NCBI GenBank assembly: GCA_964549615.1 | Contig: CAZJVP010000020.1 | Coordinates: forward strand, 192,001-256,000 | Direction: 5' to 3' | Length of the DNA stretch: 64,000 nucleotides | Source of the DNA: an uncultured Thermococci archaeon | GTDB lineage: Archaea; CAYQAE01; CAYVLA01 | Shown: positions 10,382 through 19,333 of the stretch, piece by piece | How the letters are laid out: each line of letters begins with the position of its first letter | Position numbering within the stretch: position 1 is the stretch's first letter | Notes under the pieces: generated by a model | What the model was told of the DNA's origin: nothing | Databases searched by the model: none | The model's input: the letters and a program-made list of their open reading frames with translations, nothing else | Program-made: the position numbers and the translations under genes

Positions 10382-12018
10382 CCCAATGCCTTCTCAAGTC
10401 GGTCTGCCACCGTATCAGGTCCGAGTGCACAAACCAAAGGGCCCATTCTGGGTCCGTGGTCGGTGCCCAGCAGCAGCCTGTAAAGGATCTGGAAGAGCCT
10501 GGAAGGGCTCACCCCATGAAGCTCGGCTGCGGAGAACACCGACGACTGGATCGCATCAGGACCGGGACTGGTCTTGATGACGCGAGCTAGGTGGCGAAGG
10601 CTCGCCTTCTCCGGGTCGGTCAGCTTGGCAATGAATGCCCTGTCGGGCTCGCCGGCCGGCCGCAGGGCGAGCTCGGGCACGAACATGCGAACCCAGTTCC
10701 GGGCGTAGATCAACCTCTGCCTGATCTGCTCAACAGCCCTCTTCGAAGGACGGCCCTTGATCAGCTCGGTCCTCCGCAGTGCCTTGATCGCCTCTGACAT
10801 GGACTCCTCTGGATCGTAGACTTGGGCGATGAGCGAAGCGAGGGTCAGGTCGATGGTCGCCGGCCTCTCTTTCGGGGGACTTCGGAGCTGGGAGATGCGG
10901 TAAAGCCTGATCATGTGCGACCTCTCTCTTTCGTTCGAGGCATCGGCCTTGCCGTAGTAGACGTCCGCGTGTCCGTCGTAGTCGGCATAGAGCCTCGGCA
11001 ACTCCCGCCAGGAGAAGCTCCTGGTCTTCATCAGCTTCTTGTTGTACAGGAACCTGAGAAGCTCAGCCGGCGCGACCTTCAACCAGTCCGCCGGGTAAAC
11101 GACGTTGCCCAAGGATGCGCTCATCTTCCTGCCGTCTATCAGAAGATGCTCGTAGAAGAAAGGCGTCGGCATGGGGTAGTCAAAGATGCGCTCAGCTATC
11201 TCCCCGTTCACCCACCATGCACTCGTCGGAACCTCATACTCCTTTCCCCCGCCCTCGCAGCTCACCTTCCAAAGCGCCCATTCGCTCGCCCACTCCCCTT
11301 TCCAGAGGATCTTGCCCTTGTCGCGCAACGCATCCGCCCACCCCACGTAGCCGCATCCTTTGGCAACCGTCTTCTCGAACTGGTAGTCGCGGCATTCGTA
11401 CCTGATCCGCGAGCCGTCGATCTCCAAGACCTGAGGCGTTATCACCTTGCCGCACTCGGCACAGATGGGCTTCCATGGCGTCCACCCCGAAGAGAGGCTC
11501 GAATCCCTGTATTTCTCGAGGATCTCCCTGACCCGATCCCGATTGTCAAGGAGCTTCTTGATGTACCTGCGGAAGCTACCCCTGTCGTATTCCTGCGTGG
11601 TCGAATACCGACGGGCCTTGTTGACCACGAAGTCCTCCATCACTTCGAGGTACTCCGCCCGGTGGTGTTCCGCGTAGGAATCGTGACAGCCGGAGGGATC
11701 TGGAACCTCCGTCACCGGCTTTCCCAGGTACTCCTCGTATTCCTTGGGGACGCCTTCGGGGATGCTCCTAAGGGGATCCATATCCTCGCCGACCCAGATC
11801 ATGCGGGCCTTGGCACCGGCGTCGCGAAGCGCGGTCACGATGGAGTCCGCCCGGATGGTATCGCTCAACCGGCCTATGTGCAGGACGCCCGAAAGGGATG
11901 CCGAGGTCTTCACGACGAAGCATGTCCTCTTGGGAACGGGCTTGTCGACGAAGTGGTACTTCTTCCTCTCGCAGATCTCCCTTGCCTTCTGGTCGGCCCA
12001 GAACAGAGGCTCCGTCAT
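10378..12018 (-). CDS. lysS: Lysyl-tRNA synthetase, class I (archaeal type)
   Basis: FWAD N-terminus, SLSGVLHIG (HIGH), D.D.LR.IP, PDP.GCH.SYAEH, Zn-knuckle C..C, KMSASLGNV, GPRMG. Start ATG 12018 chosen because the 12072 start would overlap the tRNA gene. Confidence 0.96.
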   Translation of the reverse strand: MTEPLFWADQKAREICERKKYHFVDKPVPKRTCFVVKTSASLSGVLHIGRLSDTIRADSIVTALRDAGAKARMIWVGEDMDPLRSIPEGVPKEYEEYLGKPVTEVPDPSGCHDSYAEHHRAEYLEVMEDFVVNKARRYSTTQEYDRGSFRRYIKKLLDNRDRVREILEKYRDSSLSSGWTPWKPICAECGKVITPQVLEIDGSRIRYECRDYQFEKTVAKGCGYVGWADALRDKGKILWKGEWASEWALWKVSCEGGGKEYEVPTSAWWVNGEIAERIFDYPMPTPFFYEHLLIDGRKMSASLGNVVYPADWLKVAPAELLRFLYNKKLMKTRSFSWRELPRLYADYDGHADVYYGKADASNERERSHMIRLYRISQLRSPPKERPATIDLTLASLIAQVYDPEESMSEAIKALRRTELIKGRPSKRAVEQIRQRLIYARNWVRMFVPELALRPAGEPDRAFIAKLTDPEKASLRHLARVIKTSPGPDAIQSSVFSAAELHGVSPSRLFQILYRLLLGTDHGPRMGPLVCALGPDTVADRLEKALG

Positions 12019-12058
12019 GGATACACCGGAAAAATGAGCCGCGGATTCTAAAATGCCG

Positions 12059-12078
12059 TTCGCCCCGGCCACGCCGGT
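12059..12078 (-). other. tRNA-Met intron 4 (20 nt, acceptor-stem 3' strand, 68/69)
   Basis: Full hBHBh': GCC/GGC outer helix, CGCT/GGCG central 4 bp, bulges CC|A and AA|C, inner CCGGC/GCCGG. Removal yields TCCCGGC-A, which pairs with 5' GCCGGGG. Confidence 0.85.
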
Positions 12079-12101
12079 GGAGCGGGCTTCGAACCCGCGA
12101 C

Positions 12102-12118
12102 TTCCGTCTCTTCCGAGA
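12102..12118 (-). other. tRNA-Met intron 3 (17 nt, variable loop, about 45/46)
   Basis: TCTCGGAAGAGACGGAA with a CTC-GGAA-GAG hairpin. Relaxed central helix CCGG/ACGG, cuts AG|T and AA|G; removal restores the AGGTC variable loop. Exact register is ambiguous by a few nt. Confidence 0.75.
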
Positions 12119-12126
12119 CTCCGGAT

Positions 12127-12180
12127 GTCCCAGGGACATGGCCGGAGAACCTACGCTGGGTCCCGTGCCCTTAGGTCACC
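12127..12180 (-). other. tRNA-Met intron 2 (54 nt, canonical 37/38)
   Basis: Central helix CTCA/TGGG, bulges TA|G and AC|A; removal restores the CTCATAA anticodon loop. Confidence 0.9.
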
Positions 12181-12197
12181 TATGAGTCCGGCGCGCT

Positions 12198-12226
12198 CTC
12201 CGGTCGGGCCCCCTCGCGGGCCCGAT
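12198..12226 (-). other. tRNA-Met intron 1 (29 nt, D-loop, about 20a/21)
   Basis: Central helix CTGG/CCGG, bulges TG|A and AG|A, inner 8-bp hairpin TCGGGCCC/GGGCCCGA (relaxed BHB). Confidence 0.85.
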
Positions 12227-12280
12227 CACCAGCTGCGCCACCCCGGCAGTAGATTCGTTCCCAGAATCCTGAAAATGCCA

Positions 12281-12290
12281 TATAAATATA
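12281..12290. promoter_or_regulatory. TATA element between the divergent tRNA-Met and radical SAM genes
   Basis: TATAAATATA lies about 34 nt upstream of the tRNA 5' end (minus) and about 32 nt upstream of GTG 12322 (plus). Confidence 0.65.
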
Positions 12291-14742: not shown

Positions 14743-14817
14743 AGCGAGGTGGGGCAGCCAGGAGTGCCCGACGGGCTCATAACCCGTAGGTCAGTGGTTC
14801 AAATCCACTCCTCGCTA
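14743..14817 (+). tRNA. Initiator tRNA-Met(CAT), intronless, no encoded CCA
   Basis: AGCGAGG/CCTCGCT acceptor stem with A1-U72, anticodon arm ACGGG CTCATAA CCCGT with three consecutive G-C pairs, GGTTCAAATCC T arm. Confidence 0.96.
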
Positions 14818-15139
14818 CTCCTTTCAAGGCGTCCGTCGGTTTTGGGCGTCTGCTGGTGAGGCAGCCGCGCGCTGCGTCCTACGAGGGCATCTTTATTGTC
14901 ATACAGAGTGGTTCGGCCCCTGTCCAGCACTCTCAGTGCCCTGTTCGCCTCAATCGCAGTGAGGCGCGGGTTCAAAGACAGCTACGACGTCAAAGGTTGG
15001 TCGAAAGATCCCTCGGTCTTCGAACCCTACCTCGAAGTCGAAGTCGGGGGAAAGGTTTATCAGAGCAGCGCCTACCCGCAAAGGGGTACTGAGCCAGAGG
15101 GCTCTTCCTCGGGCGGGATGCTCGTTCGGGTGGGATTCG

Positions 15140-18100
15140 GTGATGCGGGCGCCGACATTCCTCGCCTTGGTCCTGGTATCGCTTCTAAGCAGCCTATCCG
15201 CTGCAATCGCAGAGAACGCGATTACGGTGCCCGACGACTTCAGCACCATAGCTGAAGCAATAGCCGCCGCAACGCCGGGTCAGATTATACTCATTCAGCC
15301 AGGGGTCTACAATGAGAAGCTCTCAATCGATAAGGGAATAATGCTGCGCGGACTCAAGCCCGACGAGACTTTCATCTTTAGTAACGAAGAGCCGTGCACA
15401 ATCTGGATAGGTGCTGCCCATGTCGTCCTTTCTGGCGTTACGGTGATGAACTATAACGTGCGTACAAGGGGGGCCGTTCATGCCAACGGCTCGAAATACT
15501 GCACCATCACCGGCAATAGAATAATCGGCGGGCTCTATCTCACCTACTGCGACGATTGCAGAATCGAAGACAACAACATTCTTGCAGACCCATACCGCAG
15601 CACCGACGGCTTAGGCGTCATTCTGTGTCAACGCGTCACTATCCAAGGAAACACAGTCTCAGGCTTCGCGATCGGCTTGAACCTAGACCGTTCGGGTCTG
15701 TGCAAGCTCAGGCATAACCAGCTATGCGGCAACCGCCGCGGAATGTCGGTCAGAGCCATAAGCATCGACACCGCCCTTCACGATATCGACCGGACAAATG
15801 AGGTCGACGGCAAGCCGGTTTACTACTTCGTGAACGCTTGCAATCTTGTCATCGAACCCTCACATTTTCCCAAAATAGGGTACCTCGGCATAGTGGCCTC
15901 ACACAACGTTTTTGCCAGAGACCTGTCTATCACCGGGGCTGCTCAAGGAGTGCTGGTCGCGTTCTCGAGCAACGTCTTCTTGGACAATCTCACCTTGACG
16001 GACAATGATAACGGGCTGAACATGTTCTCCACCTCGGATTCCGAGATAAGGCGGAGTACCTTGAGCCGCAACAACATCGGCATCAACGCGATCCGGTCAG
16101 ACCGCATCACGGTTGTCGACAACAAGATTGGGCCGGGCGACGGCTGTGCAACGGGCCTTAACGTGCAAGCCGGAACGCTCTGGACGATCAGGCGCAACGT
16201 GATCATTGGGAACTACATGCAGATCCGAATGTATGACTGTAGGTATTTCGTCATAAGACAGAACACGGTTGCAAATGGTCTCCGAGGGCCCCCCTCGTGG
16301 AATCCAGGGTGTGGCATCGAACTCTGGTACAGCCAAGATAACAAGATCTGCCAGAACAACTGGATCGGGAATCCCGTACACGCAAGCATACCAGTCGGTT
16401 CGTATGCGAACACGTGGGATGACGGTTTGCTGGGGGGCGGCAACTTCTGGGATACCCACAAGGTCAAGGACGCAAACGGCGACGGATTCGGCGATACTCC
16501 TTATGTCATCGACCTGATGAACTCGGACAGATATCCGCTGATGAAATACTATGGTTGGGAGGACGTTGAGATCGATCTTTCACAAGCCTCAGACACGCGC
16601 TGCGATTTGAACTCGAGTCAGCTGGTCGCTTTTCACGCACGCTGGAAGCAGAGCGGCCTCGACCTTCAAGGCGGGACGATCTACGTGAATGGTACGCCGT
16701 ACAATACCAACAGCCTCGGCTGGCTGAGCTTCAGCTGCAAGTTCCCGGAATGCGGCAAGAGGTCGTGGAAGGTCACGTCAGTTGAATATGATGGTCCTAG
16801 GTCCTATGCGCAGATCGCCCCGAGTCCGTCGATCGTTTGGGATTCCGTCGACATCGAGCTGAGGGCAATAAAGGAGAGGTGCGACACGGGTTCACAGGGC
16901 CTGGCCTGGACGGCACGTTACCGATATGACCAGGCCCAGTTTGAGGGCCTCATAGTCCTCAACGACACCTGCGTACAAGATCAACCTGGCCGATATGGGT
17001 ACAAGGTTACGGAGGTGGTGGACGAGGCATATGGGCTGAGTGTATTCGAATCAAACGAGGTATCCGTTGTGTACGACAGGGTCAATCTGACACTTGTCCC
17101 TGTTGACGTGAGAGCCGACGTCGGAACGTTGGTCCCTGTCAAATGCAGAGGTACATACGAATATGATGGCTCGCCCTTCAACGGGACAGTTGGCTTCTTG
17201 CAGGTGCTAAGTTCGGACAGGGTAGGAGCCAAGGAATCAACTGCAGAATGGATCGTCGACCCACTGTACGGGCTTACGGCTTTTTGCTCAAATGCCGCAC
17301 TGGTCATCTTCGACAGGGTTAGGATCACTCTTTTCGACGACAGGATTGACGTGGGCAGCTGCACCCCCTTAGAGTGGAACGGATCATACGAATACGATGG
17401 ATCTCCTTTCAGGGGTGAGATTGAACTCAACGACAGTCCCGGATCTGACGAGGTTTGTCTCAAGAGATTCTGGGTGAAACGAATCAAGGATCCGCTTTAC
17501 AATCTGACGGCATTCACTTCGAATGAAGCGAGCGTCGTCTACGATCGGGTGATAATCAACCTTACCGTTTCCGATGACCACATAGATGTAGGACGGGCTG
17601 CCGACTTGAAGATTGCTGCCCGTTACGAGTTTGATGGTGCCGCCTTTGACGGCTTGGTCTTCTTGAACGACACCCGGATCGTCCTTGATGCCCCCGGCAG
17701 AAGGGCCTTCACCGCCTCGTCCATCACCGACTTCCTCTACGGCCTGAACGAATTCAAATCAAACGCCGCCGCCGTGACTTGGGACAGGGTCCGTGTTCTT
17801 CTATCCGTTGAGAGAGATCGCGTGGACGTTGGGACGGCCCCCGAAATTCTAGCGCACGCTGTGTATGAGTACGACCATTCGCCGATCTCGGGGTCGGTGA
17901 TACTCAACGACACCACACAGAAGCAACAGCTTGGCTTGTTCGCATACACGGTGCGGGAGGTGCGCGACGAGAAGTACGGGCTTTGCGAGTTCTCGGCGAA
18001 TTGCATCAGGGTGATCTATGACACCGTATTGCTCGACATGCTTATCTCAGACCCCAGGATCGACATCGGCACCTCGCCAAACATCACGGTCTCCGGAAGA

Positions 18101-19333
18101 TACGCGTACGACGACAGCCCCTTCGAAGGCAAGGTTCAGCTTAACGACACCCTTGCGCCAGTACACGAGATAGGGAAAAAAACTTACGGGGTCAAAGCAA
18201 TTGAAGATCCGAGGTATGGGCTTGCGACCTTCCGTTGCAATTCGGTGGACTGCGTATTCGACGAGGTGGAGATCGAGCTCAGCACCCCAAGGCATCGCAT
18301 CGATGTGGACGCGAACGCCCAGATAATCCCAGTCGCTCGCTATCAGTACGACAACACTAAGTTCTCTGGCTCCATCGTGTTGAACGACACCATCACTCGC
18401 TATCCCTATCCCTGCAAGAGGAGCTACACGGTAGCATCCATCGGAGACGCCCTGTATGGTCTCACAAAGTTCCGTTCGAACACAATTTCGGTCGTCTTCG
18501 ATCAGATCCAGGCGACGGTGACGGTGGAAGATCAGCGGATCGACGTAGGGTCGGAGGCTAATCTCACAGTTGCAGGAACGTACGCGTACGACGGATCGCC
18601 GTTCGTGGGATCGCTCCGCCTAAACGACACTCGCCTCTCCCAGGAAGAGGTTGGGAGGAGAGGATACACCGTCGCGTCCGTTAGAGACGATCTTTATGGC
18701 TTAGAGAGCTTCCGCTGCAACCAGGTCTACGTTATCTTCGATAAAGTGGGCATCATCCTTCAGGGACCTGCCCGCAGGGTCCAAGCAGGTAAGAATGCCA
18801 CAGTGGTTGCGCACGGAACATATTCCTACGACGGCCAGCCTTTCGTCGGATCGATCCACATCAACAAGCCGACCAAACAGGATTCGGTTGGCAAGATTTC
18901 CTACGGAGTCGAGGGCATCTCGGATGGCCTCTTTGGGCTCAGCATCTTCGATGCTAATCAGATCGAAGTTACCTTTGACTTGATAAGGGTGGAGCAAAGA
19001 CTATACTCGTGGATGCCGGGAAGGCTTAGGACAAGGGTGGAACTTCGGTATGAATCGGACATGTCCGCGGTCGAAGAGGCAAGGGTCACCGTCGGGCGGG
19101 TGCAGGCGATTAACTTGGGAATGGGCATCTACACGGCCCGCATCCCGGCTTGGAGTGCTGTTGTGAAGACCACCACGACCGTCGAACTTGACGGTTTCGA
19201 CCAAGTGGTTCTCGAAGTGAGAGCTGTAGCGGCCGGGACTATCGTCCTCATTGTCGTGCCCGTGCTCGTGGCAATCGTGGGAGGCCTCGCTCGTCTTCTG
19301 AAGGAGAGGAGGAGGACCCGGGAAAATCTCTGA
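15140..19333 (+). CDS. Large cell-surface protein: signal peptide, NosD/pectin-lyase-like beta-helix, about 10 tandem ~80-aa beta-rich repeats, C-terminal TM anchor
   Basis: ITVPDDFSTIAEAI..A..G..I.I.PGVYNE, PbH1-type N.I..N repeats, N.WD.G..GGNFW..D.NGDG.GDTPY.ID..N.DRYPL; C-terminal hydrophobic helix plus KERRR. Confidence 0.88.
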   Translation: MMRAPTFLALVLVSLLSSLSAAIAENAITVPDDFSTIAEAIAAATPGQIILIQPGVYNEKLSIDKGIMLRGLKPDETFIFSNEEPCTIWIGAAHVVLSGVTVMNYNVRTRGAVHANGSKYCTITGNRIIGGLYLTYCDDCRIEDNNILADPYRSTDGLGVILCQRVTIQGNTVSGFAIGLNLDRSGLCKLRHNQLCGNRRGMSVRAISIDTALHDIDRTNEVDGKPVYYFVNACNLVIEPSHFPKIGYLGIVASHNVFARDLSITGAAQGVLVAFSSNVFLDNLTLTDNDNGLNMFSTSDSEIRRSTLSRNNIGINAIRSDRITVVDNKIGPGDGCATGLNVQAGTLWTIRRNVIIGNYMQIRMYDCRYFVIRQNTVANGLRGPPSWNPGCGIELWYSQDNKICQNNWIGNPVHASIPVGSYANTWDDGLLGGGNFWDTHKVKDANGDGFGDTPYVIDLMNSDRYPLMKYYGWEDVEIDLSQASDTRCDLNSSQLVAFHARWKQSGLDLQGGTIYVNGTPYNTNSLGWLSFSCKFPECGKRSWKVTSVEYDGPRSYAQIAPSPSIVWDSVDIELRAIKERCDTGSQGLAWTARYRYDQAQFEGLIVLNDTCVQDQPGRYGYKVTEVVDEAYGLSVFESNEVSVVYDRVNLTLVPVDVRADVGTLVPVKCRGTYEYDGSPFNGTVGFLQVLSSDRVGAKESTAEWIVDPLYGLTAFCSNAALVIFDRVRITLFDDRIDVGSCTPLEWNGSYEYDGSPFRGEIELNDSPGSDEVCLKRFWVKRIKDPLYNLTAFTSNEASVVYDRVIINLTVSDDHIDVGRAADLKIAARYEFDGAAFDGLVFLNDTRIVLDAPGRRAFTASSITDFLYGLNEFKSNAAAVTWDRVRVLLSVERDRVDVGTAPEILAHAVYEYDHSPISGSVILNDTTQKQQLGLFAYTVREVRDEKYGLCEFSANCIRVIYDTVLLDMLISDPRIDIGTSPNITVSGRYAYDDSPFEGKVQLNDTLAPVHEIGKKTYGVKAIEDPRYGLATFRCNSVDCVFDEVEIELSTPRHRIDVDANAQIIPVARYQYDNTKFSGSIVLNDTITRYPYPCKRSYTVASIGDALYGLTKFRSNTISVVFDQIQATVTVEDQRIDVGSEANLTVAGTYAYDGSPFVGSLRLNDTRLSQEEVGRRGYTVASVRDDLYGLESFRCNQVYVIFDKVGIILQGPARRVQAGKNATVVAHGTYSYDGQPFVGSIHINKPTKQDSVGKISYGVEGISDGLFGLSIFDANQIEVTFDLIRVEQRLYSWMPGRLRTRVELRYESDMSAVEEARVTVGRVQAINLGMGIYTARIPAWSAVVKTTTTVELDGFDQVVLEVRAVAAGTIVLIVVPVLVAIVGGLARLLKERRRTRENL
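16560..18980 (+). repeat. Protein-level tandem repeat (~80 aa, about 10 copies)
   Basis: Consensus D.V.I.L....RIDVG......Y.YDGSPF.G...LNDT......Y.V..I.D.LYGL..F.SN...V.(F/Y) recurs through the C-terminal two-thirds of the ORF. Confidence 0.85.

Follow-up and report, generated by a model that had tools for sequence, protein, structure and literature searches.

Anatomy of the interrupted tRNA gene

The 64,000-nucleotide (nt) stretch of DNA analyzed here (the window), from contig CAZJVP010000020.1 of an uncultured archaeon (GenBank assembly GCA_964549615.1), contains a putative elongator tRNA-Met gene that is interrupted by four introns with bulge-helix-bulge (BHB) motifs. The locus occupies 194 nt of the minus strand (positions 12247 to 12054) and consists of five exons of 21, 17, 8, 23, and 5 nt and four inserts of 29, 54, 17, and 20 nt, with 120 of the 194 nt contributed by the inserts. 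These lengths, the underlying sequence, and the share of intron had been given in a preliminary description made from the letters alone; the sequence and inserts matched the minus strand exactly, and the share was confirmed by the coordinates. The joined exons formed a 74-mer that ARAGORN called as tRNA-Met(CAT), with 21 of 21 stem pairs and one G-T pair in the acceptor stem, which bears out the fully paired 74-nt cloverleaf with a CAT anticodon that had been proposed.

Standard tRNA position numbers were assigned by us from the cloverleaf, and all features of the locus are on the minus strand. The inserts lie at about 20a/21 in the D-loop, at 37/38 (the canonical site), at 45/46 in the variable loop, and at 68/69 in the 3' strand of the acceptor stem. 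Exon 1 (12227 to 12247, 21 nt) carries the acceptor 5' strand, positions 8 and 9, the D-stem 5' strand, and most of the D-loop, and it is followed by intron 1 (12198 to 12226, 29 nt). Exon 2 (12181 to 12197, 17 nt) contains A21, the D-stem 3' strand, G26, the anticodon stem 5' strand, and the loop as far as A37, including the CAT anticodon; intron 2 (12127 to 12180, 54 nt) separates it from exon 3 (12119 to 12126, 8 nt), which supplies A38, the anticodon stem 3' strand, A44, and G45. Beyond intron 3 (12102 to 12118, 17 nt), exon 4 (12079 to 12101, 23 nt) spans G46 to C48, the entire T-arm, and positions 66 to 68 of the acceptor 3' strand. Intron 4 (12059 to 12078, 20 nt) precedes exon 5 (12054 to 12058, 5 nt), which holds acceptor positions 69 to 72 and the discriminator base A73; CCA is not encoded. 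Internal hairpins are present in intron 2, and no C/D box was seen in it when the sequence was read by eye.

A TATA-like box (12278 to 12290), presumably the promoter, is centered about 38 nt upstream of tRNA position 1, and its core was unchanged in an alignment of all four genomes of the family. T-runs at 12053 to 12050 and 12034 to 12030 (span, 12030 to 12053) lie 3' of the gene and likely mark a transcription stop. Both the upstream box and the downstream T-run agree with the preliminary description. Just past the T-runs, an open reading frame (ORF) for a class I lysyl-tRNA synthetase has its start codon at 12018. A scan for bacterial-type promoters and terminators found nothing; archaeal signals fall outside the model used by that scan, and its result was disregarded.

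The unspliced gene was invisible to both ARAGORN and Rfam, as had been anticipated for standard annotators. ARAGORN reported no genes in the unspliced 301-nt stretch, intron option included, and over the window it made a single call, a tRNA at 14743 to 14818, with the four-intron locus not called. Rfam at the gathering threshold returned the same single tRNA across the window, and none of the 35 matches to the Rfam tRNA model in the whole genome fell at the locus. When 401 nt surrounding the locus were searched with Rfam at a permissive threshold (E up to 10), no tRNA match was obtained, and three sub-threshold chance matches appeared (Y RNA-like, microRNA, and frameshift element).

Splicing motifs and folding

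A BHB motif was defined by four exon bases 5' of the 5' bulge that pair with four intron bases 5' of the 3' bulge, by bulges of 3 nt, and by a cut after the second bulge base, and motifs were checked by hand and with our own solver. Introns 1, 2, and 4 have strict BHB motifs with correct 3-nt bulges, and intron 3 belongs to the relaxed class, in keeping with the strict or relaxed junctions described earlier. The motif at intron 1 is of the HBh' type, with a central helix (CTGG/CCGG) paired at four of four positions and an 8-bp (base pair) intron hairpin. At intron 2, the central helix (CTCA/TGGG) is also complete, with one G-U pair, and the 5-bp anticodon stem serves as the outer helix. Intron 3 has three of four central pairs and a G.A mismatch, with a 3-bp intron hairpin closed by a 4-nt loop. 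Intron 4 has a full hBHBh' motif, with four of four central pairs, a 5-bp intron helix, and a 3-bp exon helix.

In local folding, the BHB was the minimum-energy fold for intron 1 (−22.6 kcal/mol) and intron 4 (−14.7 kcal/mol). A BHB-compatible fold of intron 3 lay 0.5 kcal/mol above the optimum, and the BHB-containing fold of intron 2 lay 5.7 kcal/mol above it. When the whole precursor was folded, appreciable pairing probability was found for the central helices of introns 1 and 3 only.

Tests against chance

The solver scored pairs out of 16 (acceptor, D, and anticodon stems) and conserved bases out of 9. Run without being given the answer, it returned the four-intron model as its top solution, with 16 of 16 pairs and 9 of 9 conserved bases. 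With introns limited to 75 nt or less, 27 other unassigned T-arm-like sites in the genome gave either no solution (18 sites) or solutions with 13 to 14 pairs (9 sites). Within a 667-nt test window, 1,050 start/length combinations (about 1.3% of an estimated 80,000 or so) satisfied the BHB rule, and all four of the boundaries defined by homology did so.

The joined 74-mer aligned without gaps to the intron-free tRNA-Met(CAT) of a distant genome (G035), with 62 of 74 positions identical. It also shared a 9-nt D-loop and a 5-nt variable loop with the one-intron tRNA-Met genes of two other genomes (G006 and G030). A motif-free spliced alignment of the locus to the tRNA-Thr of genome G010 needed four long gaps in roughly the same places. 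The locus is judged from these comparisons not to be a product of chance, and the decisive evidence is independent of the BHB motif.

Identity and copy number of the tRNA

Three CAT tRNAs were found in the genome. One is the intron-free tRNA-Met at 14743 to 14818 of the window (plus strand), 2.5 kb from the four-intron gene and on the opposite strand. Initiator tRNAs are marked by A1:U72 and by three G-C pairs closing the anticodon stem; both marks occur in this gene, as A1:T72 and GGG/CCC, and identify it as the predicted initiator. The four-intron gene lacks these marks: with its CAT anticodon it combines G1-C72 and an A-T pair closing the anticodon stem. The third CAT tRNA, on contig C79, shares its acceptor stem with tRNA-Ile(GAT), and both genes have an intron after mature base 44. 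The two agree at 60 positions, compared with 52 for tRNA-Ile(GAT) and the four-intron product, and the C79 tRNA is most likely tRNA-Ile2.

By elimination, these assignments argue that the four-intron gene is the putative elongator tRNA-Met rather than tRNA-Ile2. Acceptor stems of the GCCGGGG type mark archaeal elongator tRNA-Met. Genome G010 has the same CAT triad; its GCCGGGG-type member has a 37/38 intron and is separate from an Ile-like CAT tRNA whose first 7 bases are the same as those of tRNA-Ile(GAT).

A short-word BLAST search of the genome with the joined product returned, below E 0.01, only the exons of the locus itself. When the G035 tRNA-Met was used as the query in a genome-wide scan that tolerates introns, again no second elongator tRNA-Met was found. 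In that scan, the C79 tRNA (1.16 per base) and the four-intron locus (1.10) ranked above the ordinary tRNAs (1.05 or less). The genome was rated 99.46% complete, in an assembly of 104 contigs.

Conservation and intron history in related genomes

The phylum is represented in the genome collection by five species genomes, four in the family of the window and one (G004) in a sister family, and the records of the nearest relatives of the lysyl-tRNA synthetase carry the label "Candidatus Hadarchaeota." The locus was present beside the same synthetase gene in the other three genomes of the family, G001, G002, and G003, at 86%, 80%, and 74% identity over a 261-nt query, and in the alignment all four inserts were at identical sites in these genomes. 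Short BLAST matches to exon 4 in other archaea were T-arms.

Exons were nearly invariant in these comparisons, with identities to G001, G002, and G003 of 72/74, 70/74, and 71/74, compared with 102/121, 91/122, and 78/128 for the introns. Exons 2, 3, and 5 were identical in all three relatives (17/17, 8/8, and 5/5), and exon 4 differed only in G002 (23/23, 22/23, and 23/23). In exon 1 (19/21, 18/21, and 18/21), five changes were in the D-loop and one was at acceptor position 7 (G to A in G002); all exon changes were confined to the D-loop, position 7, and T-loop position 60. The cloverleaf paired in 84 of 84 cells. Among the introns, intron 2 (50/54, 46/55, and 37/54) was better conserved in G001 and G002 than intron 1 was (20/29 and 17/29).

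Across the four genomes, 95.1% of 144 cells of the BHB helices were paired and 8 pairs had changed on both sides, values that were reached in 0 of 500 shuffles; slid controls paired at 27 to 45%. Six of the two-sided changes were in the 8-bp hairpin of intron 1, one was in the hairpin of intron 4, and one was in the central helix of intron 1, where the paired bases of D-loop and intron had altered together. The T.G pair in the central helix of intron 2 was replaced by T-A in G003. In intron 3, all four genomes had the G.A mismatch and retained the three central and three hairpin pairs, with a 4-nt hairpin loop that was different in each. The hairpin loop of intron 4 varied in length between genomes.

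The tRNA-Met gene of G004 (L082:585-700, minus strand, 116 nt) has two introns, at about 30/31 and at 37/38, and shows no interruption at the D-loop, 45/46, or 68/69 site. The intron at about 30/31 has a 4-bp BHB central helix; the G004 genome is AT-rich. Based on the continuity of the G004 gene at these three sites and on the outgroups, the D-loop, 45/46, and 68/69 introns would most parsimoniously have been gained in the ancestor of the family and kept since. A BLAST search for paralogues of the introns elsewhere in the same genome returned, outside the locus, only T-arm matches and 19-nt matches with E of 0.39 or worse, and this search gave no sign of mobile intron families.

tRNA genes across the genome

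Motif-free spliced alignment against the 44 compact tRNAs of G010 located 43 tRNA genes, of which 11 had no introns, 19 had one, 9 had two, 3 had three, and 1 had four; 32 of the 43 thus had at least one. True loci scored at least 0.94 per base and false ones 0.73 to 0.86, with C81 tentatively located at only 0.77. The three-intron genes were those for both tRNA-Gln species and tRNA-Pro-TGG, and no other tRNA gene located in the genome has as many introns as the four-intron tRNA-Met gene. ARAGORN recognized 39 of the 43 spliced products; the intron counts of the four genes whose products were not recognized (C52, C32, C81, and C76) are therefore approximate.

Eight of the 43 genes, the four-intron tRNA-Met gene included, were invisible to Rfam. 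The other seven, with two to three introns each, are at C78:30057-30178 (plus strand) and, all on the minus strand, C88:77580-77691, C88:26922-27062, C48:29522-29666, C51:46993-47118, C75:12828-12961, and C76:22638-22746; the isotypes as listed are His, Pro-CGG, Ser-GCT, Gln-TTG, Pro-TGG, Gln-CTG, and Gly-GCC. Genes for tRNA-Asn(GTT) and tRNA-Ala(GGC) were not located, and an intron-tolerant scan of the genome for tRNA-Asn and a third tRNA-Ala gave nothing above background. The locus C79:2834-2924 could be spliced as either Trp(CCA) or Arg(CCT), which leaves one of these two also unlocated. The unlocated genes may be even more fragmented, may be split, or may lie in assembly gaps. If more fragmented genes are hidden in this way, four introns may not be the maximum for the genome.

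Elsewhere in the window, a 1,397-aa (amino acid) ORF at 15140 to 19333 (plus strand) has a signal-like N terminus and a hydrophobic C-terminal segment, and it contains a unit of about 80 residues that is repeated about ten times. Its product is probably a surface protein.

Splicing enzymes

Two genes for tRNA-splicing endonuclease (EndA) were found, and both were present in all four genomes of the family. The first (403 aa; C90:41466-42674, minus strand) matched the epsilon-type EndA of ARMAN-2 (PDB 4FZ2) with an E value of 2e-73, aligning residues 29 to 403 of 403 with chain residues 22 to 387, and Pfam identified two endonuclease stretches and two N-domain stretches in it. By these matches, it is classed as a predicted epsilon-type three-unit enzyme, a class in which a single polypeptide of about 390 to 400 aa combines two units of catalytic type with a structural one. 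Full-length relatives of it, at 35 to 40% identity, were seen in two small genomes (G014 and G037). The second EndA (393 aa; C88, L078:1456-2637, minus strand) consists of two units and carries an acidic extension at its N terminus. Its C-terminal unit most resembled the catalytic subunit of a tRNA-splicing endonuclease of known structure (PDB 3P1Z chain B), the Aeropyrum pernix enzyme. The ligase RtcB is also encoded in the genome (E = 1.8e-182).

The epsilon-type EndA was considered as the cause of the intron load, and this is not claimed. Genome G004, in which a single EndA match was found, in a small open frame (about 190 aa), also looks heavily interrupted: 21 of its 28 Rfam tRNA matches are longer than 80 nt, 18 are longer than 88 nt, and its tRNA-Met gene has a noncanonical intron.

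Comparison with published systems

Peer-reviewed sources give a maximum of three introns for archaeal tRNA genes (PMC8450103, PMC4033280). The maximum of three introns given for known examples in the preliminary description agrees with these sources; a preprint from October 2026 describes as many as five intervening sequences in one tRNA gene of Asgard archaea (bioRxiv 10.64898/2026.10.13.758758), which weakens the novelty of the count. Four introns therefore exceed the peer-reviewed maximum but not that of the preprint. In three Asgard genomes, 92 to 95% of tRNA genes are interrupted, with multiple introns in over half (PMC11291895). Our literature searches found no paper on multi-intron tRNAs in lineages labeled Hadarchaeota or in similar lineages; the supplements of the Asgard studies, which possibly list four-intron genes, were outside these searches. 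The combination of lineage and enzyme context seen here appears not yet to have been described for extreme tRNA fragmentation.

The preliminary description had looked to Thermoproteales for comparison. The host is not a member of that order; it belongs to the small phylum described above. In Thermoproteales, such as Pyrobaculum calidifontis, several short introns per gene occur at canonical and noncanonical sites with strict or relaxed BHB motifs, as they do here, EndA has broad specificity, and neighboring motifs sometimes form only once another intron is out (PMC8450103, PMC4033280). Thermoproteales differ in having at most three introns per gene and an (alpha-beta)2 heterotetramer rather than epsilon-type and two-unit EndA, and they are an unrelated lineage. 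Asgard archaea resemble the present genome in that most tRNA genes are interrupted, many by multiple introns, and in that the introns are often missed by standard annotators and located in the D-arm (PMC11291895; bioRxiv 10.64898/2026.10.13.758758). They represent another phylum, however, and their EndA is described as a two-paralogue (alpha-beta)2 enzyme, not epsilon; the Asgard intron counts derive from a census by comparison.

"Candidatus Micrarchaeum acidiphilum" (ARMAN-2) shares a single-polypeptide three-unit EndA and many tRNA genes interrupted at noncanonical sites, and its epsilon2 EndA, a homodimer, cuts strict and relaxed BHB motifs at noncanonical sites in vitro (PMC3239211). In ARMAN-2, 56% of genes are disrupted and the example given has two introns, whereas the present genome has 32 of 43 genes interrupted, one of them by four introns, and an extra two-unit EndA. 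The nuclear tRNA-Ile(UAU) gene of Cyanidioschyzon merolae combines BHB introns in the D-arm and T-arm with one at 37/38, and the outer introns were shown experimentally to be removed before the 37/38 intron (PMC3728597). A similar order would apply here, with the differences that the red-algal gene is eukaryotic and nuclear, has three introns rather than four, and has experimentally demonstrated splicing, whereas splicing is predicted for the archaeal gene.

Weighing of alternative explanations

The locus is very probably a functional elongator tRNA-Met gene of this archaeon, and apparently the only one. The identification as an elongator tRNA-Met with four BHB introns, put forward in the preliminary description, was supported by homology to compact tRNA genes, by conservation and covariation in relatives, and by the unsupervised solver. 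Two points on which that description could be checked also came out in its favor, with no other elongator tRNA-Met in either genome search and the four inserts at the same sites in the three relatives.

The alternative given most room concerns the boundary of intron 1, which is ambiguous by one base. If the cuts were one base further in on each side, intron 1 would be 27 nt and the product a 76-nt tRNA with an 11-nt D-loop. The solver gave this register a complete 4-bp central helix, a 7-bp intron helix, and an equal stem score, and the four central pairs were also found by hand in the alignment for G002 and G003. In G001, however, only three of the four pairs form, whereas the 29-nt register has all four in each of the four genomes and yields a 9-nt D-loop, as in the tRNA-Met genes of G035, G006, and G030; the shorter intron is considered improbable. 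It is somewhat more improbable still that the product is tRNA-Ile2, with CAU modified to read AUA, and that the C79 gene is the elongator tRNA-Met. The anticodon alone cannot discriminate between the two genes, and ARAGORN labels both Met. Against such an exchange of roles stand the tRNA-Ile(GAT)-like acceptor stem, intron site, and higher match count of the C79 gene and the fact that in G010 the Ile-like and GCCGGGG-type CAT tRNAs are different genes.

Least probable, and very unlikely in our judgment, is that the locus is a decaying or nonfunctional relic or a chance cloverleaf, with a working tRNA-Met elsewhere. The 104-contig assembly and the chance cloverleaves produced by relaxed searches would allow for it. 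The near-invariance of the exons beside diverged introns across three genera argues otherwise, as do the compensatory changes that keep the splicing helices, the conserved promoter box, the gap-free alignment to real tRNA-Met genes, and the failure to find another elongator tRNA-Met in a genome of this completeness.

Several results weigh against the interpretation as a functional four-intron gene. When as many as five introns per gene, each no longer than 140 nt, were allowed, pseudo-cloverleaves with 16 of 16 pairs appeared at 2 of the 27 unrelated sites; that setting was consequently abandoned for inference, and a cloverleaf with relaxed BHB motifs is by itself insufficient proof of a multi-intron tRNA. 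The central helix of intron 3 holds just three standard pairs. The central helices of introns 2 and 4 had pairing probabilities near 0 in the whole precursor and in every partly spliced form (never above 0.04 across 15 partly spliced states at 37 and 70°C), so that nearest-neighbor folding cannot rank the splicing steps, and forcing all four motifs together cost 22.6 kcal/mol relative to the optimum. Nearest-neighbor models treat bulged motifs such as the BHB poorly. The exon stems show no covariation, since the exons barely vary, and covariation from four related, nonindependent genomes is supportive rather than a statistic. A further tRNA-Met copy may lie in a gap of the assembly. Transcription, cutting, and joining of the precursor are deduced from sequence; a search of sequencing runs found no RNA run that contains the locus, and one metatranscriptome of the same study contained next to none of the sampled words and 0 contigs on the stretch and is uninformative on expression.

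Proposed maturation and implications

The four-intron gene would be transcribed from its own TATA-box promoter into a precursor of about 200 nt, in which each insert and its flanking exon bases would fold into a BHB motif (three strict, one relaxed). EndA would then cut in both bulges of every motif. The epsilon-type three-unit EndA is the most likely agent, given that its solved homologue cuts relaxed motifs at noncanonical sites, and the two-unit EndA may help. RtcB would ligate the five exons into the 74-nt tRNA, with CCA added later. The central helices of introns 3 and 4 occupy bases of three stems of the mature tRNA (anticodon, T, and acceptor), and the precursor must therefore adopt alternative folds on its way to maturity. 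Ordered splicing is probable, in which introns 3 and 4 would be removed before the final cloverleaf forms; this proposed order is drawn solely from the mutually exclusive helices and not from the pairing probabilities.

We give about even weight to a broader reading, in which this small phylum would be a third independent hot-spot of tRNA introns, beside Thermoproteales and two Asgard classes, served by an epsilon EndA of a kind known elsewhere from ARMAN/Micrarchaeota. The single elongator tRNA-Met would have carried three extra introns since the family ancestor and would have an obligatory order of cutting, because the anticodon, T, and acceptor stems cannot form together with the helices of introns 3 and 4. 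Elongation at every AUG would then need four consecutive splicing events.

At least 8 of the 43 tRNA genes escape standard finders, and automated annotation of such genomes would consequently report missing tRNAs and may misjudge completeness and decoding capacity. The locus also offers a compact natural substrate for testing EndA on competing folds and for testing splicing order. If the precursor is spliced as predicted, every internal Met codon in this archaeon would be read by a tRNA whose maturation takes four rounds of endonuclease and ligase action, one above the maximum in peer-reviewed reviews. Extreme fragmentation of tRNA genes would thereby be extended to a lineage outside Crenarchaeota and Asgard and tied to the rare epsilon-type endonuclease.

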